Shown here piece by piece: positions 2,851 through 62,996 of a DNA stretch of 64,000 bases. Each line of letters opens with the position of its first letter. Position 1 is the first letter of the stretch. The notes below the pieces were generated by a model, which was given only the letters and a program-made list of their open reading frames with translations, was not told where the DNA came from and did no database searches. Source of the stretch: Patescibacteria group bacterium (GTDB taxonomy: Bacteria > Patescibacteriota > Patescibacteriia > 2-12-FULL-57-11). The position numbers were made by a program, and so were the translations under genes. The stretch is from assembly GCA_004297205.1 (NCBI GenBank), contig SCUL01000002.1, positions 594,893 to 658,892 of the forward strand. Direction: 5' to 3'.

Positions 2851-3822
2851 TTAGACGCACTGCGCGAGGATTTGTCGTAAGGCGTCTTCGGCGGCGAAGC
2901 GGCCGCGCTTGATGCCGGCATCGGCATTCAGAAGCGCGTCATGAAAACGGCGGACGCGGACGGCGGAAAGCGCTCGCGCCTGGGCGAATGTCTTCTTGGC
3001 CACAAACGGGTGGACGCCGAAGGACGAGGCCAGCGCCTCCGGCCCGCCGCTGCCGGCGTCGATCAGCGAACGGGCGGCGGCGAGCAGCCGCGCCTGGCGG
3101 ATGAGCATGGCGAGCAGGGCGAAGGCGTCATTGCCGGCCGCGAGTTCGCGCTCGAGCAACGTCGCACCAGCCCGGGTGTCGCCGGCGCCCACGGCATCGG
3201 TGAAGGCAAAGGCGTTCTCCTCCAGATGGCGTTCCACGAGCAACGCAACATCTTCACGCATGATCGGAACGTCGCTGCGCCAGGCGGCAAGTTTGGCCAC
3301 TTCGCCGGACATGCGCCACAAATCCGGACCCACGGACACGGCCAAGAGCTCGGCGGCGTCGCTCATGATCTGGCGGCCGGCGCGCGCCGCTTCCTCGGCA
3401 ATCCAGGCGCGCAGCGGCCCGGGGGCGAGTGGGGGGAAGCCGTACTCGACGATGGCGCTTTTCGGCAGCGCCTTCTGAAGCGCTTTCCGGAGCGGATGCT
3501 TAGCGACCGCTTCTTCGGAGATGACGTCGGATAAGACAACAATCAGCTGCTCGGCGTCGTGAGCGGCAAGCGCCGCGGCGTAGGGCTCCATGGCTTTCTC
3601 GCCCTTCCGGGAAAACAGCCCTTTCACAACGACCAAGCGTCGGCTGGCGAGGAACGGTTGGGTCCGCACCGCCGATGACAGCTCTTCCGGCGAAAGCGCG
3701 CTGCCGTCGCGCAGGTCTACGTTCATGCCGGACTGGTCGAACTTGGCGCGGAAGGCGGTTACCAATTCATCGCGCTTCTGGGCGACGCGATAGCCGTCTT
3801 CGCCATGCACCAAGATGACCAT
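2851..3822 (-). CDS. holA: DNA polymerase III delta subunit
   Basis: 323 aa; delta-subunit-like N-terminal RFC-box region and C-terminal helical domain; adjacent to rpsT, a commonly conserved neighbourhood. Confidence 0.75.
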   Translation of the reverse strand: MVILVHGEDGYRVAQKRDELVTAFRAKFDQSGMNVDLRDGSALSPEELSSAVRTQPFLASRRLVVVKGLFSRKGEKAMEPYAAALAAHDAEQLIVVLSDVISEEAVAKHPLRKALQKALPKSAIVEYGFPPLAPGPLRAWIAEEAARAGRQIMSDAAELLAVSVGPDLWRMSGEVAKLAAWRSDVPIMREDVALLVERHLEENAFAFTDAVGAGDTRAGATLLERELAAGNDAFALLAMLIRQARLLAAARSLIDAGSGGPEALASSFGVHPFVAKKTFAQARALSAVRVRRFHDALLNADAGIKRGRFAAEDALRQILAQCV

Positions 3823-3833
3823 AGGCGCCCATC

Positions 3834-4442
3834 CTACCCCGGCCTCTGCATGACAATCCAGGCCATGCCGACCTCCGGCGGTTCGCGTCCGTCGATGCGC
3901 CGCGAAAAGAAGCGGTCCGGCTGGCAGGCAGTGCAGGGCGGCTCCGCGCTGACCAGTGCGGCGGCGAGTCCGGCATCAAGAAGCGCCCGGACGGCGGCAC
4001 GCCGCAGATCCAGCACCTGATCACAGACCACCGCTGCACCGAAGCGTTCAGAAAACTGGGCCCGGCGGTCCGCGTCAACTGCGTAGTGGCAGGGACCGAC
4101 GGACGGGCCGACCTCGACATGCAGGTCCTCTGGTCGGGATCCGAGGGCGGTGAGCGCGTCGACCGTCGCAGCCAGGACGCCGCGGGGCGCAGCCACGAGT
4201 CCGCGCCAGCCGGCGTGCGCCAGGCCGATCGCGCCCAAAACCGGATCAAAGAAATACACGGGAAGGCAATCCGCGGCCGTGATGGTCAGCACGATGCCGG
4301 GAGTCGTGGTCACGAGCGCGTCGCTCTGCGGGAACAGGGCGTGTCCCTCCTGCAGCGTTTCTTGCCCGGTGACGGTGCCGACGGCCGCACCATGCACGGG
4401 CAAGGGAGCGGCAATCGTGGTGCCGGGAACGCGCGCGGCCAA
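3834..4442 (-). CDS. pgeF: Purine nucleoside phosphorylase / laccase-domain protein PgeF (YfiH); the N-terminus may be frameshifted
   Basis: Motifs QVHG-like (PVHGAAV), TADCLPV and GLAHAGWRG. A further ~35 N-terminal residues appear in another frame (ORF 4246..4569, MPHLIWTDEP...). Confidence 0.7.
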   Translation of the reverse strand: MAARVPGTTIAAPLPVHGAAVGTVTGQETLQEGHALFPQSDALVTTTPGIVLTITAADCLPVYFFDPVLGAIGLAHAGWRGLVAAPRGVLAATVDALTALGSRPEDLHVEVGPSVGPCHYAVDADRRAQFSERFGAAVVCDQVLDLRRAAVRALLDAGLAAALVSAEPPCTACQPDRFFSRRIDGREPPEVGMAWIVMQRPG

Positions 4443-15177: not shown

Positions 15178-16323
15178 CTACACCTTGATGGGCATCACCA
15201 GGTACAGGTAGTCGGCGGTAGCGGCCTGCGGCGTAATCAGGCAGGGCGCGTTGGCGTCGATCACCTGGAGCTTCACTTCAGACAGGTCCATGGCGTTCAA
15301 CCCATCGAGCAGATAGCGGTAGTTGAGGGTGATGGTGTTCTGGTCGCCCTTGATCTCCGTGGGCGTCAGGACTGCCTCCTGCTCGCCGACCTGGCTGTCG
15401 GTAGCGGAGAGCTTGAGCGTGCCTTCGGAGGGTTCATAGGTGAAATGGACGTCGTACAGGCCGGTCCGGGAGAAGAGCGCCGCCGCCTTCACGGCTTTGA
15501 TGAGCTGGTCGCGGCTGAGCACGGCAAAGGTCCGCGCCTTGTCCGGGATGACCGCCCGGTATTCCGGATAGTTCCCCTCGATGGTGCGCGAGACCACCTC
15601 GACCGCGTCGTAGACGAACAGAATCTGCGAGTCGGACAGCGCGATCTCGAGGGTGGCCGGGCTGTCCGGACCGTCCTTGAGCGAGGACAAGATGCGCTGG
15701 ACTTCGGCCAAGGTCCGGGCCGGAACGATGACCGAGCGCTCGCCGGCCGGTTTCCCGCCTTCGTGGAGCGCCACGCGGGCCTCGGACAGGCGGTAGGAGT
15801 CGGTCGCGGCAAAGATCAGCGTCCCGTTCGGACCGTCCGGCGAGAAGCGGAGCAAAACGCCGGAAATCTCAGGGCGCGACTCGTTCGGGGAGACGGCGAA
15901 GATGACGCGCGAGACCGCCCGGCGAAAATCGGAGACCAGCACCCGGAACGAGGAATCGCGGGACACCTTGGGGATGAGCGGAAATTCAGAGGAGGGCAGC
16001 CCTTTGATCTTGGTGCGGCTGGATCCCGACGAGACGGTGGCGGTTTCGCCGTCGGCGGTCAGGTCGACCCGGTCGCCGGTAAGCAATCCCACGTAGTCGG
16101 CCAAGAGGCGCGAGGGCAGCGTGCATTCGCCGGGCTCGTCGACCTTGCCGCGCACCTGGACGGTCACGGCGATCTCCAAGTTGGTCGTCGCCAGCTGGAT
16201 CGATTTGTCCTCGACCTTGATCAAGACGTTATTCAAGATCGGTAGGTTCACGTTCTTCGTGGCGATGTGGCTGACGGCCGCCAGGCCCTGGATCAAATTT
16301 TCCTGTGTGCACGAGAATTTCAT
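15178..16323 (-). CDS. dnaN: DNA polymerase III beta sliding clamp
   Basis: 381 aa with the beta-clamp three-domain pattern; immediately downstream of dnaA. Confidence 0.95.
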   Translation of the reverse strand: MKFSCTQENLIQGLAAVSHIATKNVNLPILNNVLIKVEDKSIQLATTNLEIAVTVQVRGKVDEPGECTLPSRLLADYVGLLTGDRVDLTADGETATVSSGSSRTKIKGLPSSEFPLIPKVSRDSSFRVLVSDFRRAVSRVIFAVSPNESRPEISGVLLRFSPDGPNGTLIFAATDSYRLSEARVALHEGGKPAGERSVIVPARTLAEVQRILSSLKDGPDSPATLEIALSDSQILFVYDAVEVVSRTIEGNYPEYRAVIPDKARTFAVLSRDQLIKAVKAAALFSRTGLYDVHFTYEPSEGTLKLSATDSQVGEQEAVLTPTEIKGDQNTITLNYRYLLDGLNAMDLSEVKLQVIDANAPCLITPQAATADYLYLVMPIKV

Positions 16324-16555
16324 GTGGATCGGTATATATATCCAATAGACGTAATCGGCGTGGGGATACCGGGGATAACCCCGAAATTTGCCGACATGTC
16401 CTCACGATTCATGAACAAGCCCTTGGGGACGACGACCTGCACGGACTGTCGACGGACAGGGGACCGCCGTTTCCGAGCTGCCGCGCCTGGGGATGACGGT
16501 CCTCCTTATCCCCATCGCCATCCTCGGGTGCGCAGCTCTTTTCCCCAACCTGTCC
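16324..16555. promoter_or_regulatory. oriC: oriC-like dnaA-dnaN spacer: AT-rich DUE candidate plus DnaA-box-like repeats
   Basis: GTATATATATCC AT tract. Four 9-mers of the form TGGGGAT(A/G)(A/C): TGGGGATAC, GGGGATAAC, TGGGGATGA, and TTATCCCCA in reverse complement. TGTGGATCG overlaps the dnaN start. Confidence 0.55.
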
Positions 16556-17959
16556 TCACGCCGCGTGGTAGACGCGCTCCTTGAGGAGGGACAAATCTTG
16601 TCGCAGCTTCTCATCCTTCTCGACCATCAGGCCGATCTTCGTACAGGCGTGGATGGCGGTGGTGTGGTCGCGGCCGCCGATCTCGGAACCGATGGCCGGG
16701 AATGAGGCTTTCATCTCTTCGCGCATCAGGAACATCAGGACCTGGCGGGGGAAGGCCAGCTTCTTTTCGCGGCTCTTGCCGAGCAGGTCATCGATCTTCA
16801 GGTCGTAGTAGGCGGCGACGGTGGCGATCAGCTGGCGCGCCGTGATCGTTTTTTTGGCTGGGTTGACGGAATAGCTGGAGATGATGTTTTTCACTGTCTC
16901 GACCGTCGGCGGAATGTTCTTGAACTGGTGGTAGGCGTGGATCTTGTTGAGGGCGCCTTCGAGCTCGCGGACGTTCGAGGTCACCCCGGCGGCGATCGTC
17001 GTCAGGATGTCGTCCGAGAGGTGCACGCCCTTCTCCTGGCACTTGGAGCGCAGAATGGCGATGCGGGTTTCGAGGTCCGGCGGGCTGACGTCGATGACCA
17101 TGCCCATCTCGAGCCGGCTCACCAGCCGCTCTTGAATGGTGGGGATGCTCTTGGGCGGACGGTCCGAGGACAGCACCACCTGGCGGTTCTCCTGGTGGAG
17201 GGCGTTGAAGGTGTGGAAGAACTCCTCCTGAGTGGATTCTTTGTTGGCCAGGAATTGGATGTCATCGACGATCAGGAGATCCACGGTCCGGTAGCGGTCC
17301 TTGAACTCCTTGGCCAAACCGGCGCGGACCGCGGCGATGTAGTCATTCGTAAACTGCTCGCTGGAGACGTAGAGCACCCGTGCGCCGGGGTTCTTTTCCA
17401 GCATTTTGTTGCCGATGGCCTGCAGCAGGTGGGTTTTGCCGAGTCCGACGCCGCCGTGCAGGTAGAGCGGGTTGTATTTTCGCCCCGGCGCGTCGGCCAC
17501 GGCCTGGGCCGCGGCGTGCGCCAGCTCGTTTCCTTTGCCGACGACGAAGCTCTCAAAGGTGTAGTGGCGGCGGAAGCCGCGCTCACCGGCCGGCTCCGTC
17601 TCCATGGCCTGCGGCATCTCGGGCATGGCCGGGACGTCGGTCACGGCGACGGCCTGCGAGACCGTTATCGCGGCCTGGGTGCGCATCGGCTCGCCCGCGC
17701 TGCGCGTCTCGACGCGGTACTGCACGTCGCGGATCGGGGCATTCAAAATGTTCTGGAGCGCTTTCAGGATTGCTGAGTGGTACTTCTTTTCAAGCCAGGC
17801 CTTCGTGAAGGCGTTGGGGACCGAGATCGTGATCCGCGCTTCCTCCATCTCCGAGATGAAGGTGCTCTTGAACCAGGTTGTGAAATTGGCCTTGGACAGG
17901 GCGAGTTCCAACTCCCCGAGCGCCGCCTGCCAGAGTTGTTGCGGGGTCATGGACGTCAT
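16556..17959 (-). CDS. dnaA: Chromosomal replication initiator DnaA
   Basis: AAA+ Walker A GGVGLGKTHLL, sensor motifs, and the C-terminal DNA-binding domain (LIATVAAYYDLKIDDLLGKSREK). Confidence 0.97.
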   Translation of the reverse strand: MTSMTPQQLWQAALGELELALSKANFTTWFKSTFISEMEEARITISVPNAFTKAWLEKKYHSAILKALQNILNAPIRDVQYRVETRSAGEPMRTQAAITVSQAVAVTDVPAMPEMPQAMETEPAGERGFRRHYTFESFVVGKGNELAHAAAQAVADAPGRKYNPLYLHGGVGLGKTHLLQAIGNKMLEKNPGARVLYVSSEQFTNDYIAAVRAGLAKEFKDRYRTVDLLIVDDIQFLANKESTQEEFFHTFNALHQENRQVVLSSDRPPKSIPTIQERLVSRLEMGMVIDVSPPDLETRIAILRSKCQEKGVHLSDDILTTIAAGVTSNVRELEGALNKIHAYHQFKNIPPTVETVKNIISSYSVNPAKKTITARQLIATVAAYYDLKIDDLLGKSREKKLAFPRQVLMFLMREEMKASFPAIGSEIGGRDHTTAIHACTKIGLMVEKDEKLRQDLSLLKERVYHAA

Positions 17960-18165
17960 CGTGCGGGGGCCACGGGGGGATGAATGACGGGACTGGGGAA
18001 AACTCGGAAAAGACTTGATTTTCAGCGGTAAAATGGCACGTGGAAGTGTAACACGGGGCGCGACTCGGTCAACTATGCACAGGAGCGCTCAAAGTGTTGA
18101 AAAGATGTGGATGGTATGTGTATGATGGTGCCACTCGTTCGCTGATCGAGGCAAGAACCCTACAT

Positions 18166-18306
18166 ATGCCGAAGCGCACATATCAGCCGAAGAAGCGGAA
18201 GCGCGCACGTACCCACGGATTCCGGGTCCGTATGCGGACCAAGAACGGCCGAAAAGTGCTGAAGAGCCGCCGCGCCAAGGGCCGTAAGCGCGTGAGCGTT
18301 CAGTAG
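18166..18306 (+). CDS. rpmH: 50S ribosomal protein L34
   Basis: [42 protein letters not shown] matches L34 almost residue for residue. The track ORF is extended upstream. Confidence 0.95.
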
Positions 18307-30472: not shown

Positions 30473-31228
30473 ATGCGCGCTTCACCGCTTATCGCCACGT
30501 TGCTCGGTCTCACGCTTTTGGGCGCCGGATGTGCCGCTCCGGCCGCACCGGGGGCCTCCGGTGGAGCCTCCGGGTCTGGCTCCGTCGCCACCCGCGGCGG
30601 CGGTGCCTGCGACAACGCGTACTTTCCCTCCGCACAGGGGACGAAGCTGGAATATGCCACGGCGGTCTCCGGGAGCAGCGGCAGCTACAGCATCGAGGTG
30701 CAGGAACGTTCTGCAACGAACCTGAAGCTGCTCTACACCTTTTCGACCACGGCTTCCGGCGGCGGTTCGCTGTCCTTCACGCAGGACGTCCGCTGTGACG
30801 ACGGCGCGCTCTCCGCATTGAGCTATGCCGACATCGGCAGCGCGGTCACGGGCGGTCGGGTGAGCGCCAGGACCACGCGCTCCAGCGGTCTGCTCATGCC
30901 GCGCGACATCAGCGTGGGCACGACGTGGACCTCGAGTTTCGACATCGAAGCCACGATCACCCTGCCGGGAACGTTGGGGTCGCGGACGGTCAGCAGCACC
31001 ATCAACAATGAAAGCCGCGTGGTTGGCCAGGAAAGCGTGACCGTGCCCGCGGGCACCTACCAGGCGTTCAAAGTCGAGTCGACGCTGACCACGCAGAGCG
31101 GGCCGATCAGCGGCATCGCCATTCCGCCGCAGACCGTGGTATCGACGAGCTGGTTCGTGGAAGGACTCGGCATGGTGAAATCGGTGGCCGGAGGGATGAG
31201 CACGCAACTCGTGCGCGTGACGCAATAA
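30473..31228 (+). CDS. Secreted lipoprotein, hypothetical
   Basis: Signal peptide MRASPLIATLLGLTLLGAGC with lipobox LGAGC. Ser/Thr/Gly-rich mature region. Confidence 0.6.
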   Translation: MRASPLIATLLGLTLLGAGCAAPAAPGASGGASGSGSVATRGGGACDNAYFPSAQGTKLEYATAVSGSSGSYSIEVQERSATNLKLLYTFSTTASGGGSLSFTQDVRCDDGALSALSYADIGSAVTGGRVSARTTRSSGLLMPRDISVGTTWTSSFDIEATITLPGTLGSRTVSSTINNESRVVGQESVTVPAGTYQAFKVESTLTTQSGPISGIAIPPQTVVSTSWFVEGLGMVKSVAGGMSTQLVRVTQ

Positions 31229-31239
31229 GCGTCCATGTG

Positions 31240-31272
31240 AAACACCCCCGCCGAGGCGGGGGTGTTTTTGTT
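31240..31272. terminator. Bidirectional terminator between the lipoprotein gene and the nuclease gene
   Basis: Hairpin CACCCCCGCC-GAG-GCGGGGGTG flanked by AAA and TTTTTGTTT. Confidence 0.7.
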
Positions 31273-31860
31273 TCAGGTCCGGCCGGCGCAGGTGTCGGGG
31301 TTCCAGAGCCCTTTTTCTGACAGGCGGGCGGCGCGTTCGGCATCGCGGAGGATTTCCTGGTATCTGCCGGCGCGTTCGTAGGTGTATTCATGGGCGTAGC
31401 CCTCGGCGACGAGCCTTAAGTTCACATGCGTACCGTCCTCGAGGAACACATGGCGCAGGAGGCGGCCGTAGCGGTCGCGGTCATCCTGGGTCGGGTCGGC
31501 TTCGAGTCGCACCGTTTTGCCGAGCAGCAGCCCCTTGGCAAAGGCCGAGGCCTCTTTGCCGAAACATTCCACGGGCCGGCGCGGATCAACGGACTCCGGC
31601 GTGTTGATGCCGAGCAGACGGATGCGGACTTCTTCGCCTGAGGCAATGACGTCGATGGTGTCGCCGTCAACGACCTTGGAGACGGTCCAAGGAGTGCCGG
31701 TTGCGGCGTCAGCACCGGAGATCGCCACCGGAGCGGCCTCCCTGGGCGCGCGCAGGGCGTCCGGCAGCGTCAGGCTGAGGATAAGGACCGCGATGATGAC
31801 GGCCGCACCCTGGAGTGTCCGAAGGCGGCGCAGCAGGGAGTGGTGGGCGTCGTGAGGCAT
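31273..31860 (-). CDS. Thermonuclease (SNase-like) family secreted nuclease
   Basis: VVDGDTIDV...RIRLLGINTPE...GKTVRLE...D.YGR.L..V pattern of staphylococcal-nuclease homologues; N-terminal TM/signal. Confidence 0.8.
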   Translation of the reverse strand: MPHDAHHSLLRRLRTLQGAAVIIAVLILSLTLPDALRAPREAAPVAISGADAATGTPWTVSKVVDGDTIDVIASGEEVRIRLLGINTPESVDPRRPVECFGKEASAFAKGLLLGKTVRLEADPTQDDRDRYGRLLRHVFLEDGTHVNLRLVAEGYAHEYTYERAGRYQEILRDAERAARLSEKGLWNPDTCAGRT

Positions 31861-31866
31861 AGCGTC

Positions 31867-32295
31867 TCAGGCGGACGGCGCAGCCGGTTCCGATGTGGGG
31901 CGAAGCAGAAAAAGAAGCAGTCCTGCCACGATCATGCCGTCCGCCAGGTTCACGAGCGACCACGGGCCGATGCGGATGTAGTCGAACGTGACGCCGAAGA
32001 AGACGCGGTCGATGGCATTCGAGAGTCCGCCGGCGGCCACCAGCAAGGCGCCCAGGTTGCCGCGGCGCACACCGAGCGCGCCAAAACCCAGTGCCAACGC
32101 CAGCGATCCCAAGGTCAGCACCAGACCGGGCACGGGGATGCCAAAGGCGATGCCGGGATTTTGGAACGGCTCGAACCCCAGCAGGCCGGGAACCAAGAAC
32201 ACCCCCTGGCTGGGCAGGAGGTGCTGGGAGTACCACTTGAGCGCCTGATCGACGCCGATCAGGACGATCGGGAGGATGTACGCGCTGCGGCGCAT
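31867..32295 (-). CDS. lspA: Lipoprotein signal peptidase II
   Basis: 142 aa, four TM helices; conserved NPGIAFG and VNLADG...D blocks. Confidence 0.85.
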   Translation of the reverse strand: MRRSAYILPIVLIGVDQALKWYSQHLLPSQGVFLVPGLLGFEPFQNPGIAFGIPVPGLVLTLGSLALALGFGALGVRRGNLGALLVAAGGLSNAIDRVFFGVTFDYIRIGPWSLVNLADGMIVAGLLLFLLRPTSEPAAPSA

Positions 32296-32667
32296 TTATG
32301 CTTCTTGCGTGAGCCGTTTCTTGCACTCAATGCAGGCGGAGGAGGTCGGACGGGCCAGGAGCCGCTTGGCGTCGATTTCCTTACCGCAGTATTTGCAGAC
32401 GCCGTAGGTTCCCTTGGTGATGCGCTCCAGGGTCTTTTTGACGTCGCGCAGCGCCGCTTCGAGGGTCCGCTCCAGGGTCAGATTGGTGGAGTAGGTTTCG
32501 ACTTCCGCGGCATTCTCATCTTCTTTGTCGCCAATCTGCGGGAACTCAGCGTTGAAATCGTCCTTGTTCTTTGGATTACGGTGCGTGAAGGCAGCGAGCT
32601 GGCCTTCCAGCTGCACCTTTTCCGCTTCCAGCTTGGTTTCGATCTCTTTTAGGGTCTTTTTGTCCAT
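32296..32667 (-). CDS. DksA/TraR-family C4 zinc-finger protein
   Basis: C-terminal CKYCGKEI...CIEC four-Cys finger and an N-terminal coiled coil. Start at MDKKTLKEI. Confidence 0.75.
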   Translation of the reverse strand: MDKKTLKEIETKLEAEKVQLEGQLAAFTHRNPKNKDDFNAEFPQIGDKEDENAAEVETYSTNLTLERTLEAALRDVKKTLERITKGTYGVCKYCGKEIDAKRLLARPTSSACIECKKRLTQEA

Positions 32668-32721
32668 AAGGGGTGGCACAAAGCCGGAAACACCCGGATT
32701 CCCCAAAGAATACCGTGTTAT

Positions 32722-32787
32722 CGGAAAAAAAAGAAGAGGCGCAGATAGTTGGCCATACATAGAAATGGATGTGCCTCACTGCGCCTC
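32722..32787 (-). terminator. Extended hairpin plus U8 tract on the minus strand, 55-120 nt upstream of the dksA-like start codon
   Basis: Stem GAGGCGCAG...CTGCGCCTC (9 bp, long loop) followed on the minus strand by TTCTTTTTTTTCC. Confidence 0.45.
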
Positions 32788-33108
32788 GCGGCGCTGCGCC
32801 GGGGATGACTCCCCGGGGCCAGGGATCCATGTATTGGATCTCTCGCCTAGGGGAGTAATACCACAAGCATTGCAGTGCCAGGTCCATCTCCTCAACCGCC
32901 CTGAGGGCTGTTCGACCCCTCGACCCACGCGTAACCGTGAAGTCATAGTGAGGGGAAGCCACTCAACAGTTTCCTTTTCTTTTTGTTTCAAAGGGAACGG
33001 GAGAGCAGTAGAGGAGAGAGAAATACGCCCCTCCGGACGAGGAACATCTCTCTACAGGACCGCTATCGCTTTCAAGGAACGATGGTACCTTTCTGAGGGT
33101 ACGAACAC

Positions 33109-33137
33109 ATAGTATCAAAAAAGTGTTCGATTGTCAA
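33109..33137 (-). promoter_or_regulatory. Near-consensus sigma70-type promoter on the minus strand (TTGACA-17-TACTAT)
   Basis: -35 TTGACA at 33132-33137 and -10 TACTAT at 33109-33114 with a 17-bp spacer; directs transcription toward the terminator at 32722-32787 and the dksA-lspA operon. Confidence 0.55.
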
Positions 33138-33210
33138 CTCTGCTGGGTTGAGACAAAAAGGTGCCAAATGAGGCACGAACATCACGTTTCAACACCAGTT
33201 CTCAATACAA

Positions 33211-33275
33211 TGTGGATAAGTCTGTGGATGAAGTGGCAAAATTGGGGATAAGACCGTGGAAAAAATGTGGTTACC
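33211..33275. promoter_or_regulatory. Cluster of DnaA-box-like 9-mers in an AT-rich island
   Basis: TGTGGATAA (perfect DnaA box) at 33211, TGTGGATGA at 33224, GGGGATAAG at 33244, TGTGGTTAC at 33267. Confidence 0.45.
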
Positions 33276-34143
33276 CAAGGATTCCGCAGAAATTTCGATA
33301 TGTATCGGTGATTCCATCGATGGGGATGGAGGATCGGGGTCGCGGAGCGACGAGTGGCAGGACAAACCCTGGCATGGGAGCGCGGAAGGTCTTCCAGCGG
33401 CTTTCAAGGCGGACTGGAACCGCCGCCGGAACCCCGTTCAGGCAGAAGCTGCGCCCGGCAGGGAAGCGTGCCGAGATCTGGACCAGCCACTCCACCGGAA
33501 AGGTGGTGATTTCGAGATTTTCATTGTCTTCCCGGAGGGCGAGGGGGAGCGACGAGGTGGCACTCCCGAACAAGAGCCAATCCGTGCCGGGAACGCGGCT
33601 GAGCTGGGCTTCGGCTGCCTCCGGGTCGGCAACAAGCTCGTAGGCGCGCCGACCATCCGGGAGCTCGTAGGCGACCTCCTGAGGAAAAGCCCGCCCCAAA
33701 GAAGGCAGAAGGGCCTTCCGGCTCTGGCCGCTGAGCGTCAGGACGAACTGGGCGGTGCCGCTCACGTGCGGTCCGTACATCGTCAACCTGCCGCCGTGCT
33801 CAGCCTTCAGGGCGGCGGCCAGTTCAGGGTGATGGCTGGCGAAGACCCGGACGGAGCCGGCCTCCGCCGGAAACAACGGCTCCAGGATGTCTGCGGCGTT
33901 CAGGAGCGTCGCCCCAGGCGGAAGCGTGACGGCGACGCGGGCGCCGCCCGTGAATTCATCCGTGGGAGAGGCGGGAACGGGCAAAAAGGCGAGTCCGACA
34001 CCGATCGCTGCCAGGCCGATTCCTGCTGCCACGGACAGCGTCAGCATGAAGCGCCGGGATTCGTCCGTGAAGGGGAATTGGGCCAAAAACGCCTGCATAT
34101 GGCCCGTAGTGTACGTTCCGGCCGGGTCCCGGGCAATCATCAC
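33271..34143 (-). CDS. Hypothetical membrane-anchored protein (290 aa)
   Basis: N-terminal TM (LTLSVAAGIGLAAIGVGLAFL) then a probable extracytoplasmic domain. The opposite-strand 333-aa ORF is Arg/Gly-rich noise. Confidence 0.5.
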   Translation of the reverse strand: MMIARDPAGTYTTGHMQAFLAQFPFTDESRRFMLTLSVAAGIGLAAIGVGLAFLPVPASPTDEFTGGARVAVTLPPGATLLNAADILEPLFPAEAGSVRVFASHHPELAAALKAEHGGRLTMYGPHVSGTAQFVLTLSGQSRKALLPSLGRAFPQEVAYELPDGRRAYELVADPEAAEAQLSRVPGTDWLLFGSATSSLPLALREDNENLEITTFPVEWLVQISARFPAGRSFCLNGVPAAVPVRLESRWKTFRAPMPGFVLPLVAPRPRSSIPIDGITDTYRNFCGILG

Positions 34144-34178
34144 AAAAAGAAGACCGGGGACGTTTCCGTCACCCGGCG

Positions 34179-34652
34179 TCAGCGCTCGTCGTCCGCCCAG
34201 AACTTCCAGCGATACACGTTGGTGTCCCGCAGCTCGCCCTTGAGCTTGTCGCGATAGACGTGATTGGCTCGCGCGCGGTTCGCGCCACGTCCGCTGGTTA
34301 GCTCCACGAAGGAGAGACCCAGGTTACGCCCCTGCTCGATCAGCCGCTCGACGAGTGTCGTGCCGACGCCGTGTCCCTCATGGCTCGGCAACACCGCGAC
34401 GCCGTCGATAGAGCCGTAACTCTCATAGGGCGTGGTCACCAGGTTCATGGTCGCCATGCCGATGATCGGCGAGCAGCTCTCCTGGCTGATATCCCTGGCC
34501 ACGATCAGCTGGGCGCGGTACATCACCGTGATCAACCTGTCCCGGCTCGTTCGGACATTGCGCTTCGTCAGCGCGGCGATGAGGGCGTTGATGCAGGGCA
34601 GGTCGCCTTCCTGGAGGTCCTGCTGGCCGCGCATCAATTGGTATTCGATCAC
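34179..34652 (-). CDS. GNAT family N-acetyltransferase
   Basis: Motif A VLPSHEGHGVGTTLVERLIEQ (Q/RxxGxG/A). Confidence 0.8.
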   Translation of the reverse strand: MIEYQLMRGQQDLQEGDLPCINALIAALTKRNVRTSRDRLITVMYRAQLIVARDISQESCSPIIGMATMNLVTTPYESYGSIDGVAVLPSHEGHGVGTTLVERLIEQGRNLGLSFVELTSGRGANRARANHVYRDKLKGELRDTNVYRWKFWADDER

Positions 34653-34746
34653 AACTCCTCCCGTGGCAGGTTTCTACGGCATCCTGCACTCCGTGTCAAC
34701 CGTCGACCGGCGCATCTTTTCGTGGTCTTATGGCGCTGGAGGAGTC

Positions 34747-34944
34747 ATGTCCAAGACGTCGTCGATCGGTAGGAGTTGGGGATCGATCCTGAACTCCGCA
34801 ATGAACAGGGTGGCGCTCGTCCTGCTTCTGAGTTTCATGCTCGTGTTCGCGCTGCTGTTCACCGCAGCCCTGGCCATCGGTTCCGCCTGGGAGCTGACGG
34901 GAGGAAATCTCCTCCGCCGCTTCCGCCCCGCCCGCGCGCAGTAA
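34747..34944 (+). CDS. Small membrane protein (65 aa)
   Basis: GGAGGAG RBS 4 nt before the ATG; one TM helix. Followed by a terminator that is repeated after the next gene. Confidence 0.5.
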   Translation: MSKTSSIGRSWGSILNSAMNRVALVLLLSFMLVFALLFTAALAIGSAWELTGGNLLRRFRPARAQ

Positions 34945-34975
34945 CGCTGCTCGCGGCTCTTTTTTATCTTTCGTA
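34935..34975 (+). terminator. Intrinsic terminator, copy 1 of a duplicated ~40-nt module
   Basis: CCGCGCGCAG-TAACG-CTGCTCGCGG hairpin followed by CTCTTTTTTATCT. Confidence 0.6.
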
Positions 34976-35004
34976 GGTATGTTTAGATGCTTGTGGAGGT
35001 GAGC

Positions 35005-61973: not shown

Positions 61974-62048
61974 CGGTCCGTAGCTCAACGGTAGAGCGGT
62001 CGTCTTATACACGACTGGTTGCTGGTTCGAATCCAGCCGGACCGACCA
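61974..62048 (+). tRNA. tRNA-Ile2-like with anticodon TAT (UAU)
   Basis: Cloverleaf CGGTCCG-TA-GCTCAACGGTAGAGC-G-GTCGT-CTTATAC-ACGAC-TGGTT-GCTGGTTCGAATCCAGC-CGGACCG-A-CCA; T arm nearly identical to E. coli ileX. Confidence 0.7.
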
Positions 62049-62054
62049 CATGAT

Positions 62055-62561
62055 ATGCCCCTCGTCCTCTTCCGCACCCCGTCCTTCCTGCGCAACTTCA
62101 TTTTCGGCGTCGAAGACTCGCTCGTTTCCACGGTCGGTTTGCTTTCGGGTGTCGCCATCGGCGGCGCCTCACGACGGACGATCTTGCTTGCCGGGATCGT
62201 GTTGATTTTCGTGGAAGCGTTCTCGATGGGCGTGGGCAGCTATCTCTCGGAGCAGAAGGCCCAGGAGTTTTCCAAACAGCGGATGATGCCGCCGCGCCGG
62301 GCGATCATCGGCAGCCTGGTGATGTTCGTCTCGTATTTCGTTTCCGGGTTCGTGCCGCTCGCACCGTACGTTTTTTTGGATCGCGATACGGCATTCGGCG
62401 TATCCATCCTGTGTTCGCTCATCGCACTCTTCCTGCTCGGCTTCGTCGGCGGGCGGCTGTTCCGGATGTCGGCCGTGCGTAACGGACTGGAGATGCTGGT
62501 CATCGGCGGGGCGGCGATCCTCATCGGCGTCGTCGTCGGCCGGTTCGTTCCCGCAGCGTAA
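62055..62561 (+). CDS. VIT1/CCC1 family (iron/manganese transporter-like) membrane protein
   Basis: FGVEDSLVSTVGLLSGVA and second-half repeat pattern of the VIT family. Start placed after the tRNA. Confidence 0.7.
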   Translation: MPLVLFRTPSFLRNFIFGVEDSLVSTVGLLSGVAIGGASRRTILLAGIVLIFVEAFSMGVGSYLSEQKAQEFSKQRMMPPRRAIIGSLVMFVSYFVSGFVPLAPYVFLDRDTAFGVSILCSLIALFLLGFVGGRLFRMSAVRNGLEMLVIGGAAILIGVVVGRFVPAA

Positions 62562-62580
62562 AAGCGGCCCCGGAAACGAA

Positions 62581-62611
62581 AAGACGGCCACCCTGAGGTG
62601 ACCGTCTTTTC
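62581..62611 (+). terminator. Intrinsic terminator after the VIT-family gene
   Basis: GACGGCCACC-CTGA-GGTGACCGTC hairpin followed by TTTTC. Confidence 0.6.
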
Positions 62612-62686
62612 TGGTGCCGGGGGCCAGAATTGAACTGGCGACGCCAGCCTCTTCAGGGCTGCGCTCTACCACTGAGCTACCCCGGC
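62612..62686 (-). tRNA. tRNA-Phe (anticodon GAA)
   Basis: GCCGGGGTAGCTCAGTGGTAGAGC...CTGAAGA...GGTTCAATTCTGGCCCCCGGCACCA. Confidence 0.85.
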
Positions 62687-62688
62687 TC

Positions 62689-62765
62689 TGGTGGGCGGCA
62701 GAGGAGTCGAACCTCTGACCTTCACAATGTCAATGTGACGCTCTAACCAACTGAGCTAGCCGCCC
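62689..62765 (-). tRNA. tRNA-Val (anticodon GAC)
   Basis: GGGCGGCTAGCTCAGTTGGTTAGAGC...TTGACAT...GGTTCGACTCCTCTGCCGCCCACCA. Confidence 0.85.
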
Positions 62766-62805
62766 AAACGCGGGAGCAGAATACCCAAGGAGCGCCGGTC
62801 TGTAA

Positions 62806-62838
62806 AGAAGAGCGCCCCTCTTTCGAGGGGCGCTCTTC
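62806..62838 (-). terminator. Hairpin 3' of the tRNA-Pro/tRNA-Gly pair
   Basis: AGAGCGCCCCTC-TTTCG-GAGGGGCGCTCT perfect 12-bp stem. Confidence 0.5.
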
Positions 62839-62913
62839 TGGAGCGGGCGAGGGGAATCGAACCCCTATCAGCAGGTTGGAAACCTGCGGTAATAGCCATT
62901 ATACGACGCCCGC
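62839..62913 (-). tRNA. tRNA-Gly (anticodon TCC)
   Basis: GCGGGCGTCGTATAATGGCTATTAC...TTTCCAA...GGTTCGATTCCCCTCGCCCGCTCCA. Confidence 0.85.
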
Positions 62914-62920
62914 ATCTTCC

Positions 62921-62996
62921 TGGTCGGGCCGGTGGGACTCGAACCCACGACTTCCTGCTCCCAAAGCAGGCGCGCTACCAACTGCGCTACGGCCCG
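62921..62996 (-). tRNA. tRNA-Pro (anticodon TGG)
   Basis: CGGGCCGTAGCGCAGTTGGTAGCGC...TTTGGGA...GGTTCGAGTCCCACCGGCCCGACCA. Confidence 0.85.

Follow-up and report, generated by a model that had tools for sequence, protein, structure and literature searches.

In the 64-kb stretch of DNA analyzed in this study (hereafter the window), the minus strand carries dksA-lspA and, upstream of it, an AT-rich interval referred to here as the island. The dksA-type gene (32296..32664, minus strand) encodes a 122-aa DksA/TraR-type C4 zinc-finger protein (Pfam PF01258, E = 8e-9), and the second gene of this downstream operon (31867..32295, minus strand) encodes LspA, signal peptidase II (Pfam PF01252, E = 2e-19). 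At the other end of the island, a gene for a 290-aa protein terminates with its stop codon at 33271-33273. The GC content is 41-55% across the island and 64% in the window, in agreement with the initial annotation, which had described an AT-rich island at this place.

A sigma-70 promoter was identified on the minus strand at 33109..33137, with a -35 element TTGACA (33137-33132), a 17-bp spacer and a -10 element TACTAT (33114-33109). It is the sole sigma-70-like site across 32000-34000, where 0.3 such sites are expected. This near-consensus promoter had been pointed out in the initial annotation and was recovered at the same coordinates or within a few bases; the extended -10 TG at 33117-33116 (TTGACA-17-TGaTACTAT) is an addition to that description. 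The predicted transcript is a noncoding RNA (ncRNA) of ~378 nt (32725..33102, minus strand), whose 5' end was placed from the position of the -10 element and whose 3' end is the U-tract of an intrinsic terminator (32725..32787, minus strand). The terminator consists of the stem GAGGCGCAG...CUGCGCCUC (32787-32736) followed by CUUC and eight U residues (32732-32725), and its arms GAGGCGCAG and CTGCGCCTC (32787-32779 and 32744-32736) are 100% complementary, so that the extended hairpin with a U8 tract previously noted ahead of dksA is confirmed. The sole reason why a pattern scan missed it is a loop longer than 8 nt. The distance from its end to the dksA start codon is 60 nt in the window. The interval, in which long hairpins had been noticed, is far more strongly folded than expected by chance: a segment of 384 nt gives -162 kcal/mol, with z = -5.8 against 100 dinucleotide shuffles.

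Upstream of the promoter, an array of five predicted DnaA boxes, all in one orientation, occupies 33211..33274 (consensus TTATCCACA on the minus strand). Box 1 (33219-33211, minus strand) is perfect, with TGTGGATAA at 33211; box 2 (33231-33223, minus strand; TGTGGATGA) and box 3 (33251-33243, minus strand; TGGGGATAA) have one mismatch each; box 4 (33263-33255, minus strand; CGTGGAAAA) and box 5 (33274-33266, minus strand; TGTGGTTAC) have two each. The boxes are arranged head-to-tail with start-to-start spacings of 12, 20, 12 and 11 bp. A perfect box at 33211 with further boxes within 65 bp had already been noticed, and the five boxes indeed fall within 64 bp. No DnaA-box cluster elsewhere in the 64 kb scores as high, and the array holds the only perfect box of the window. 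Between the array and the RNA promoter, a short GC hairpin GTGCCTCATTTGGCAC followed by CTTTTTGT (33161..33176, minus strand) forms a terminator-like site, which is probably the terminator of the 290-aa gene. The array sits between the stop codon of that gene and this hairpin, and transcripts from upstream would therefore read through the boxes.

Homologues and shared structure of the RNA

The RNA has homologues in ~50 loci of Patescibacteria, ultra-small bacteria of the candidate phyla radiation (CPR), with genomic GC contents of 30-68%; all have the same type of promoter, a similar length and a terminator. A single-sequence nhmmer search retrieves only two or three relatives (with the window RNA, E = 3e-80 to L001 and 5e-12 to L007), and profile iteration was required to reach the others. 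Iterative nhmmer matched L001-L007, L012, L014, L027, L028 and L031-L033; a metagenome scan with an RNA-only pattern yielded 34 further loci; and the profile together with a covariance model added L008, L015, L016, L019, L030 and L052. The covariance model, built from AT-rich relatives only, recovers exactly 32888-33015 (minus strand) as its one match in the 64-kb window. It gives this copy a low score of 16.7 bits (E = 2.6), a consequence of the AT-rich composition of the model's source sequences. The RNA pattern has no match in viral contigs, and as far as sampled the family appears to be restricted to Patescibacteria.

The arrangement of promoter, RNA and terminator observed in the island recurs in these related loci. 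In essentially all of 49 family members, a TTGACx-17-TGnTAxxxT promoter is located 57-134 nt upstream of a shared structural core, and in nearly all of them a terminator follows 110-196 nt past the core, with one outlier at 363 nt. The RNA length delimited by these two signals is 320-450 nt, mostly 350-400 nt, across the 49 loci. A predicted promoter and a predicted intrinsic terminator of its own, both conserved in position, are what would be expected of an independent ncRNA gene.

The core is a three-way junction composed of a long helix (YUUCUNUACU...GGUAGAGAAG), an invariant A-rich strand (AAAACAAAAAYAAAA) and a GGUA...UACC hairpin. In the window it spans 32888..33016 (minus strand), where P2 (5' strand 33016-33002, CUCCUCUACUGCUCU; 3' strand 32902-32888, AGGGCGGUUGAGGAG; minus strand) encloses P3 (32998-32993 with 32974-32969, minus strand) and P4 (32964-32903, minus strand); P2 and P4 are supported by covariation. 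The A-rich single strand of the window, AAACAAAAAGAAAA (32975..32988, minus strand), corresponds to the family consensus AAAACAAAAAYAAAA, which can be read as a run of AAN triplets. No other block is as well conserved in alignments A2, A3 and A6, and the folds predict this strand to be exposed in the P3 loop or at the P3/P4 junction. On the 5' side of the core, minimum free energy folds place the hairpin P1, GAGAGAUGUUCCUC...GAGGGGCGUAUUUCUCUC, at 33018..33052 (minus strand); its counterpart in the Falkowbacteria-type alignment, helix 1, shows compensatory changes in 9 of 16 pairs. The 3' domain (32790..32887, minus strand) includes a long imperfect hairpin with arms at 32862-32835 and 32829-32802. 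Its helix ACUCCCC/GGGGAGU covaries with ACUCAUC/GAUGGGU in L007, and covariation is also seen in P6 and P7, the homologous helices of the Falkowbacteria-type 3' domain. A kissing interaction of CCGAC in the P3 loop with GUCGG in the P5 loop is proposed as well.

These helices are kept by compensatory substitutions beyond the controls. In the full-length alignment A4, 89.5% of cells are paired versus 46-60% when the structure is slid, with 35 double-change pairs versus 12-23 in slid controls and a covariation score of 0.343 versus at most 0.172 (0/500 shuffles). On four of five measures no shuffle out of 500 reached the observed value, and on the fifth 10 did. In the core alignment A7 (49 sequences), 94% of cells are paired versus 34-72% slid, 16 of 20 pairs are compensatory, and the covariation score is 0.250 versus at most 0.083 (0/500 shuffles). 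The many conserved G-U pairs assign the structure to this strand as RNA. In addition, L027 has a folding z of -8.5. Conservation of the island across relatives, on which the initial annotation had said that its reading would depend, is thus documented by about 50 loci with covarying helices.

MAFFT with RNAalifold on the mixed core set recovered P2 alone, since P3 and P4 differ in length; P4 was established from per-sequence folds and a covariance-model-guided alignment. Several other pairings and motifs were set aside. The pairing of the P1 purine run with the terminator U-tail, given by RNAalifold for the Uhrbacteria-type alignment, is regarded as a low-complexity artefact, and a pairing of the A-rich tract with the RNA's own U-tail is indistinguishable from low-complexity chance. 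A T-loop-like GGGGUCGAACAGCCC in the window is not kept in L007. A reading of CUUCUCUACU as a DnaA-trio was dropped because this segment is a covarying RNA helix that lies ~170 bp or more from the boxes.

Coding potential, known RNA families and the dksA operon

A conserved small protein gene in the interval had been named beforehand as an observation that would speak against an RNA; it was looked for and not found. The two weak ORFs listed in the initial annotation, one of 71 aa beginning with TTG and one of 128 aa beginning with GTG, are present, but neither is conserved. Across relatives no ORF keeps its frame and position: the longest sense ORFs range from 8 to 97 aa in unrelated frames and positions and do not exceed 12 aa in L068 and L072. 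Between the window RNA and its closest relative, L001, there are frame-breaking indels of 1, 2, 1 and 1 nt, and the ORFs of the RNA interval in the window have no Pfam match. These observations rule out a small protein gene. Together with the conserved promoter, length and terminator and the covarying helices, the missing ORF strongly supports the proposal that the interval encodes a stable or regulatory RNA of ~390 nt.

No Rfam 15 family matched the RNA at gathering scores (window and 14 loci) or in a permissive scan at E ≤10 or 1 (island and eight loci); the scans returned only tRNAs, tmRNA elsewhere and chance matches to snoRNA, miRNA and lncRNA models. ARAGORN found no tmRNA over 31000-35000. 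The earlier failure to recognize RNase P, tmRNA, SRP or 6S motifs by eye is thereby borne out. The tmRNA (RF00023) is characterized by a tRNA-like acceptor/T-arm domain and a tag-peptide frame, and neither ARAGORN nor Rfam assigns the present RNA to this class. Moreover, L028 and L032 contain a canonical tmRNA (143-149 bits) separate from the RNA, and this co-occurrence excludes tmRNA identity. In bacterial RNase P RNA (RF00010/RF00011), P1 joins the 5' and 3' ends and P4 is formed by the strands GGAAAGUCC and ACAGAAnnCGGCUUA; here the ends are unpaired, the helices are only local or nested, and no Rfam match appears at E = 10. A GGAAGUU-like stretch pairs locally inside the covarying P1 hairpin. 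6S RNA is rod-shaped, measures ~150-200 nt and is marked by a closing stem and by a large bubble at its center; it differs from this multi-domain RNA of ~375 nt, which has a three-way junction, unpaired ends and no Rfam match. For SRP RNA (RF00169 or RF01854), whose hallmark is the helix 8/domain IV motif, no Rfam match was obtained either.

A highly divergent RNase P, 6S or SRP RNA missed by the Rfam models would share with the present RNA its length of ~375 nt, its stable-RNA-type promoter and its single match in the window, features that resemble rnpB or ssrS genes, and the window indeed contains no recognizable RNase P, 6S or SRP RNA. However, a stretch of 64 kb is too small for their lack to count, Rfam 15 yields no family match up to E = 10, and the RNA has neither paired 5' and 3' ends (a P1 or closing stem) nor a long-range P4-like helix. 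We consider this identity extremely improbable. As for shared traits, tmRNA, RNase P RNA and 6S RNA are of a similar size class and have strong promoters and terminators, and the extended -10 and AT-rich upstream DNA of the present promoter are also found in abundant housekeeping RNAs; what the RNA lacks are the structural features that define them. A full-text literature search yielded no prior description of such an RNA, and the comparisons suggest a previously undescribed family.

The initial annotation had offered a second reading, in which the transcript is a terminator-controlled leader of the dksA operon. A long cis-acting leader of this kind, similar to an attenuator or riboswitch and controlling dksA-lspA via the terminator, would agree with the RNA lying on the same strand as dksA and directly upstream of it in most loci, and with the 60-nt gap between terminator and dksA in the window. 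No separate dksA promoter was found in this gap, nor in L001, and terminator read-through may therefore feed dksA-lspA in the window; in both loci the terminator could double as an attenuator of the operon. By contrast, dksA has its own promoter (TTGCCx-17-TATACT) past the terminator in 7 of 13 related loci (~200 nt after it in L006), it lies kilobases away on the opposite strand in L008 and L015, and it is not downstream at all in L068, L072, L080 and L081. No alternative antiterminator pairing was noticed in an unsystematic look at alignments A4 and A5, and no riboswitch or T-box family matches. A leader function is thus disfavored as the purpose of the element and appears very improbable, and the dksA-type gene is better described as the usual downstream neighbor of the RNA than as a part of it.

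DnaA boxes and the origin question

The association with DnaA that was proposed from the window is strongly reinforced by the family: all 36 loci tested have predicted boxes beside the RNA gene, located between -260 and -40, and 31 of these loci include at least one perfect box. Perfect boxes number 50 in 7.9 kb near the RNA and 3 in 232 kb elsewhere, which corresponds to a ~490-fold enrichment. Boxes and RNA also stay together where dksA is kilobases off on the other strand (L008 and L015) and where no dksA follows (L068, L072, L080 and L081). In every family member the array is located 95-260 bp upstream of the predicted transcription start; box orientation and promoter distance vary among loci, and many loci hold just two boxes. 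DnaA boxes at 2000-2550 of L010, L011, L017 and L020 were considered as a displaced copy of the module and rejected, as they fall within a conserved coding region that has no RNA motif in its vicinity.

Clustering of consensus boxes (TTATCCACA) in noncoding DNA, conserved in relatives, is the pattern of a putative DnaA-box cluster outside the origin. The array might be mainly a chromosomal site for DnaA titration or inactivation, comparable to Escherichia coli datA and the Bacillus subtilis clusters, with an RNA whose function is unrelated to DnaA. In such a case, the strongly transcribed RNA gene and upstream read-through would modulate DnaA occupancy. The five close boxes in the same orientation, 15 kb from dnaA, would suit such a site, as would their being transcribed through ahead of the upstream gene's terminator-like hairpin and the tRNA gene directly upstream of the boxes in Falkowbacteria-type loci. 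Precedents are datA with its tRNA read-through (PMC10950094) and the Bacillus clusters near oriC (PMC2533591). The distance of 95-260 bp and the unfixed orientation suggest that a titration or inactivation site fits at least as well as classical promoter control. Nevertheless, the boxes invariably occur with this RNA gene (36/36 loci) while the upstream neighbors change, which argues that they serve the RNA promoter or a joint function, and the two boxes of many loci are below typical titration clusters. A mainly titrating role is viewed as unlikely.

We also considered the island as the chromosomal replication origin or as part of a bipartite origin, with the RNA as an origin-embedded transcript like ccnA. 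The parts would be the DnaA boxes, an AT-rich unwinding region and an outward strong promoter assisting opening. The box cluster is better than the boxes beside dnaA, the island is among the three most AT-rich spots of the window, and ccnA inside the Caulobacter origin provides a precedent (PMC8959179). In Falkowbacteria-type loci, furthermore, the spacer between boxes and -35 is extremely AT-rich, genes farther upstream are mostly on the opposite strand, and the left side has a lower GC skew than the right. The AT-rich DNA between boxes and -35 could equally well be a promoter UP element, however, and the left-side skew in these loci is about zero rather than negative. In the Uhrbacteria type, genes on both sides share the RNA's strand. 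Within the window, cumulative GC skew rises with an equal slope on both sides of 33.2 kb and shifts only at ~5-16 kb. The classical origin context lies ~15 kb from the island, with dnaA at 17959-16559 and dnaN at ~16401-15181; there, boxes and a promoter separate the divergently oriented rpmH and dnaA, and dnaN comes next. No DnaA or DnaN homolog was detected in the flanks of the other loci by tblastn with the window proteins. The island shows neither a skew inversion nor adjacency to rpmH, dnaA and dnaN (adjacency to dnaA and dnaN being common for origins though not required), and for this reason it is probably not oriC; the probability that it takes part in an origin is judged to be very small. 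In the upstream flank of L061-type loci, the ~500-aa gene encodes an uncharacterized protein and sits after PNPase.

Proposed function and comparison with known systems

We consider it reasonably probable that the island is a self-contained gene of a new ~375-nt family of stable and highly structured Patescibacteria ncRNAs, linked to DnaA and acting in trans. Its most likely product is a highly expressed RNA whose promoter region is predicted to bind DnaA. Under this proposal, the sigma-70 promoter would drive the RNA and the intrinsic terminator would end it 60 nt before dksA. The RNA folds into a 5' hairpin domain, the conserved three-way junction and a 3' hairpin domain, and the junction is built from the long closing helix, a variable hairpin, the invariant single-stranded A-rich tract and the GGUA...UACC hairpin.

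DnaA acts as a transcription factor at its own autoregulated promoter and, in B. subtilis, at sda, ywlC and yydA. By analogy with these B. subtilis genes and dnaA, array-bound DnaA may modulate the RNA promoter, and RNA levels would in that case follow the state of the initiator. DnaA-regulated promoters likewise have consensus boxes upstream of a sigma-70 promoter, and the dnaA promoter of the window is arranged in this way, with three degenerate boxes ahead of TTGACC, a 17-bp spacer and TGTTACACT; the differences are that the product here would be an ncRNA and that 95-260 bp separate the boxes from the start site. Two invariant unpaired elements, the (AAN)n tract and the 5' motif AGUUCMUUACA, might be the means by which the RNA acts in trans, and a protein-binding scaffold or sponge would be more plausible than a cis-regulator of dksA.

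More tentatively, and with some doubt on our part, the RNA and the box array may constitute a single conserved module through which, in CPR bacteria, an RNA-based regulator is coupled to replication initiation. Two versions can be envisaged. In the first, DnaA-ATP would set the level of an abundant RNA, and this RNA would in turn act back on the machinery of growth or the cell cycle, for example by sequestering a protein on its invariant A-rich platform; in the second, transcription of the RNA gene would set DnaA occupancy at a datA-like site. Either version, if true, would amount to a circuit for replication control in which one component is an RNA, and for which no counterpart has been described.

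Among known systems, OLE, raiA, ROOL, GOLLD and HEARO are likewise long multi-helix covarying RNAs with their own promoter and terminator, a lineage-restricted yet wide distribution and an obscure function. The present RNA has no sequence or structure match to them (Rfam 15) and differs in its three-way junction with the invariant (AAN)n strand; to our knowledge, coupling to a DnaA-box array has not been reported for these classes. With datA/DARS and the B. subtilis clusters the locus shares a consensus-box cluster outside yet fairly near oriC (here 15 kb from dnaA) and, with datA, a noncoding site adjoining stable-RNA transcription. datA and DARS keep a fixed distance from oriC. The glyVXY operon precedes datA, and tRNA read-through transcription regulates this site (PMC10950094); the B. 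subtilis clusters are stable, lie near oriC and also regulate flanking genes (PMC2533591). In contrast to these sites, the boxes here are tied to one structured RNA gene lineage-wide, and many members have only two. CcnA, a 182-nt CtrA-driven ncRNA inside the Caulobacter origin, base-pairs with the ctrA and gcrA mRNAs (PMC8959179). The present gene is similarly placed amid (predicted) binding sites for a replication or cell-cycle master regulator, but it shows no sequence similarity to CcnA and its locus is probably not an origin.

Patescibacteria account for a large share of bacterial diversity and have genomes of ~1 Mb with very few recognizable regulators; we know of almost no work on their ncRNAs or cell-cycle control. 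The conservation of the architecture over 30-68% GC and the stable-RNA-type promoter imply that the RNA is likely important to these cells, and its invariable pairing with DnaA boxes offers a testable hypothesis joining it to the replication initiator. The seed alignments and the covariance model of this new family could be used for the annotation of thousands of metagenome-assembled genomes. Likely mis-annotations would be corrected at the same time, namely the spurious ORFs in the RNA interval and an over-long dksA start at 32760.

Layout of the island and its predicted transcript

The island upstream of dksA-lspA is AT-rich (GC 41-55%, against 64% for the window), and the near-consensus promoter, the perfect DnaA box at 33211 with further boxes, and the terminator upstream of the dksA start that the initial annotation had placed there are all present on the minus strand. 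Five DnaA-box-like 9-mers, all in one orientation, come first: two with two mismatches each (33274-33266 and 33263-33255), two with one mismatch each (33251-33243 and 33231-33223), and the perfect box TTATCCACA (33219-33211). This cluster has the top score in 64 kb, and no perfect box occurs anywhere else in the window. Between the cluster and the RNA promoter lies a short GC hairpin with a T-run after it (33176-33161). The promoter consists of TTGACA (33137-33132) and, at a spacing of 17 bp, TG-a-TACTAT (33117-33109). Some 378 nt of sequence lead from there to the terminator hairpin GAGGCGCAG...CUGCGCCUC (32787-32736), with CUUC and a U8 tract (32732-32725) directly 3' of it. The ATG of a DksA/TraR zinc-finger gene (32664) lies 60 nt past the U-tract, and lspA is next. 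The folding energy of the transcribed interval is -162 kcal/mol, with z = -5.8 relative to dinucleotide shuffles.

A 21-nt imperfect direct repeat (71% identity; minus strand TTGAnAC...TGTTCGTnCC) was also observed, one copy of which (33098-33118) overlaps the -10 element and start of the RNA promoter, while the other (33172-33192) lies 74 bp upstream, beside the upstream hairpin. The 290-aa ORF upstream of the RNA (33271-34143, minus strand, ending at 33271) has a hydrophobic N-terminal segment. Uhrbacteria-type loci have, between the PNPase gene and the RNA, a gene whose protein is without a Pfam match; in L061 the protein encoded at this place has about 509 aa.

A conserved small protein gene, which according to the initial annotation would speak against an RNA, was not found and is rejected. 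Compared with L001, the closest relative (DksA 85% identical), the window has indels of 2, 1, 1 and 1 nt that break the frame inside the RNA; the longest sense-strand ORFs of the family (8-97 aa) lie in unrelated frames and positions; and neither the 71-aa nor the 128-aa ORF of the window has a Pfam match. Rfam 15 (4227 families) gave nothing in the window at gathering scores, nothing meaningful in the island up to E = 10, and only tRNAs and tmRNA in 22 further loci. The failure of the initial annotation to recognize RNase P, tmRNA, SRP or 6S RNA by eye is borne out for the island by Rfam and, for tmRNA, by ARAGORN. Moreover, tmRNA is excluded by canonical copies elsewhere in two loci carrying the RNA (L028 and L032), with which ARAGORN agrees, and the architecture is incompatible with RNase P or 6S RNA, as the RNA ends are unpaired and there is no long-range P4-like helix. 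In kind, the RNA is an orphan structured bacterial ncRNA; no prior description was found in the literature searched, and the family appears to be undescribed.

Distribution and structure of the RNA family

With the window's DksA-like protein as bait and one genome per GTDB species, 57 loci were collected, nearly all from Patescibacteria (Uhrbacteria, Falkowbacteria, "Patescibacteria group" and others), some under plainly wrong placeholder organism names. Single-sequence nhmmer with the island as query picked up L001 (E = 3e-80) and L007 (E = 5e-12); in both, the promoter, the terminator and the DnaA boxes align in register. Profile iteration added L002-L006, L012, L014, L027, L028 and L031-L033, with the RNA directly upstream of dksA each time. 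For retrieval that does not rely on the dksA bait, the RNA-only pattern TTCTNTACT..AYAAAAAYAAA..GGTAGAGAAG was scanned over metagenome contigs, resulting in 34 additional loci; viral contigs gave no match. The RNA is conserved across 49 loci with genomic GC contents of 30-68%. The best promoter site lies 57-134 nt 5' of the core and is almost always TTGACx-17 bp-TGnTAxxxT, and a terminator lies 110-196 nt 3' of the core in nearly all loci (363 nt in a single outlier). Predicted RNA lengths are 320-450 nt, mostly 350-400 nt.

All members share a long helix P2, YUUCUNUACU(n)UYC / GRA(n)GGUAGAGAAG, which closes a three-way junction, and a variable-length hairpin P3. The base of hairpin P4 is GGUA...UACC, with the covarying forms GGAG/CUCC, GGUU/AACC, GGUC/GACC and GGCU/AGCC. 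The core spans 33016-32888 in the window, and the invariant A-rich strand AAAACAAAAAYAAAA 32988-32975 (both minus strand). Uhrbacteria-type RNAs carry this A-rich strand in the P3 loop, Falkowbacteria-type ones at the P3/P4 junction. The invariant single strands, (AAN)n and the 5' motif AGUUC(A/C)UUACA, are obvious candidates for functional interfaces.

As the initial annotation had proposed, relatives were aligned, and the helices covary beyond slid and shuffled controls. A full-length alignment of ten Falkowbacteria-type RNAs (A4) contains seven helices, namely P1, P2, P4, P6, P7, the terminator and a candidate loop-loop contact. Paired cells amount to 89.5% (46-60% with 3' partners slid), both-side changes occur in 35 pairs (12-23 in slid controls), and the covariation score is 0.343 (at most 0.172 in controls). 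On four of five measures, none of 500 shuffles attained the observed values; on the remaining one, further pair types, 10 of 500 did. From 13 AT-rich cores a covariance model was built, and it locates the GC-rich copy of the window precisely at 32888-33015 (minus strand). The model aligns 49 matches; in these, pairing in P2 and P4 reaches 94% (34-72% in slid controls), and the changes are compensatory in 16 of 20 pairs. Since many conserved pairs are G-U, the structure belongs to the RNA of the minus strand. The RNA of L027 folds with z = -8.5.

The candidate kissing contact of Falkowbacteria-type RNAs joins CCGAC in the P3 loop to GUCGG in the hairpin loop right after P2 (5-6 bp; L027 305-312 with 411-418, A4 columns 132-137 with 256-261). 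In L091 the two motifs are missing together, and the flanking pair alternates between G-C and A-U; covariation support is thin, because CCGAC and GUCGG are otherwise nearly invariant.

DnaA boxes upstream of the RNA

Among 36 non-redundant loci with enough upstream sequence, all carry at least one box with no more than one mismatch at -260 to -40 of the predicted start, and 31 carry a perfect box. The 7.9 kb of these intervals contain 50 perfect boxes and the other 232 kb contain 3, an enrichment of about 490-fold. As the metagenome loci were fetched by RNA motifs alone, the association does not depend on how they were retrieved. It also holds in L008, L015, L016, L019, L030, L044 and L052, where weak RNA matches and clusters of boxes occur together, spaced as expected. 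The boxes vary across the family in number (2-8), orientation and spacing. At the level of sequence comparison, these data show that the structured RNA has a conserved, independent gene, whose promoter is of the stable-RNA type and which is physically coupled to an array of DnaA boxes. The proposal of DnaA binding and of a stable RNA some 390 nt long finds support here and is considerably strengthened by the conserved promoter and terminator, the covariation and the boxes at all 36 loci compared. Such lineage-wide coupling is unusual and directly testable.

Our first preference is that DnaA bound upstream would tune transcription of a trans-acting RNA. Such control would be comparable to what DnaA does in B. 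subtilis at dnaA, sda, ywlC and yydA (PMC2533591), and the same order, boxes and then promoter, is seen at the dnaA gene of the window itself. Second, the array may be a site of DnaA titration or inactivation, with transcription of neighbouring stable RNAs modulating how far it is occupied, as proposed by likeness to datA, which sits downstream of glyVXY (PMC10950094). The window boxes lie between the stop codon of the upstream gene and its terminator-like hairpin, and a tRNA gene is found just upstream in Falkowbacteria-type loci, both of which are consistent with titration.

The third reading, that the island is oriC and the RNA an origin-embedded transcript like CcnA (PMC8959179), has a low probability. 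It draws on Falkowbacteria-type loci, where genes further upstream are mostly on the opposite strand and left-side skew is lower; however, this skew is about zero rather than negative. The window has a classical origin context at 15181-18303, with rpmH (ATG at 18166, plus strand) divergent from dnaA (17959-16559, minus strand, with the RDHTTA signature), then probable dnaN (16401-15181). The 206-bp rpmH-dnaA spacer holds three degenerate boxes of the same orientation (18125-18095) and a promoter TTGACC-17 bp-TGTTACACT. Between dnaA and dnaN are TTATCCCCA and two weaker boxes. All boxes of this region have mismatches, in contrast to the one at 33211. The cumulative GC skew curve changes slope at about 5-16 kb and climbs evenly past 33 kb, and dnaA/dnaN were found in the flanks of no other locus. 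The island is therefore probably not oriC.

Several boxes lie elsewhere. The transcribed 3' domain of the L033 RNA contains a perfect and a one-mismatch box (3767-3775 and 3856-3864), seen in no other member. Box-like 9-mers ATATCCACAGTTATCCCCAAGTTGTCCACA are grouped inside apparent conserved coding sequence in L010 (2121-2553), L020 (1994-2225), L011 and L017; no RNA motif was found near these groups, which are probably coding coincidences. In the same four loci (genomes of about 36% GC), no RNA adjoining dksA was found. The window has two tRNA gene clusters (727-1271 and 61974-62996), the first of which includes box-like 9-mers at 948 and 1140, at least the latter inside a tRNA gene, as well as the window's most AT-rich 100 nt (about 851).

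Relation to dksA and neighbouring genes

The initial annotation had offered a terminator-controlled dksA leader as an alternative. The RNA is most probably not a leader of dksA-lspA. A second promoter, TTGCCx-17 bp-TATACT, lies between terminator and dksA, about 70 nt before dksA, in 7 of 13 loci (L002 3928, L003 3928, L004 3936, L006 3946, L007 3026, L012 3937 and L014 3898), and in L006 it is about 200 nt past the terminator. Moreover, the RNA occurs without downstream dksA in four metagenome loci (L068, L072, L080 and L081), and kilobases away from dksA on the opposite strand in L008 and L015. What stands of the leader proposal concerns the window and L001: since no separate dksA promoter was found in the window (60-nt spacer 32724-32665) or in L001, read-through of the RNA terminator may contribute to dksA-lspA expression in these two.

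The Falkowbacteria-type neighbourhood consists of stable-RNA and translation genes, with tmRNA, SmpB and IF3 on the opposite strand (L028 504-901 and L032 736-1135, both minus; also the upstream regions of L090 and L067). The RNA shares its strand with several consecutive tRNA genes and a gene for a 3D-domain protein, and a few hundred bases separate the last tRNA from the DnaA boxes downstream of it. In the window, the mechanical ORF stretches the dksA-like gene to an ATG at 32760 (154 aa; 32296-32760, minus strand). That codon falls in the loop of the RNA's terminator hairpin, and the conserved protein start is at 32664 (122 aa); gene callers may therefore over-extend the dksA-like gene.
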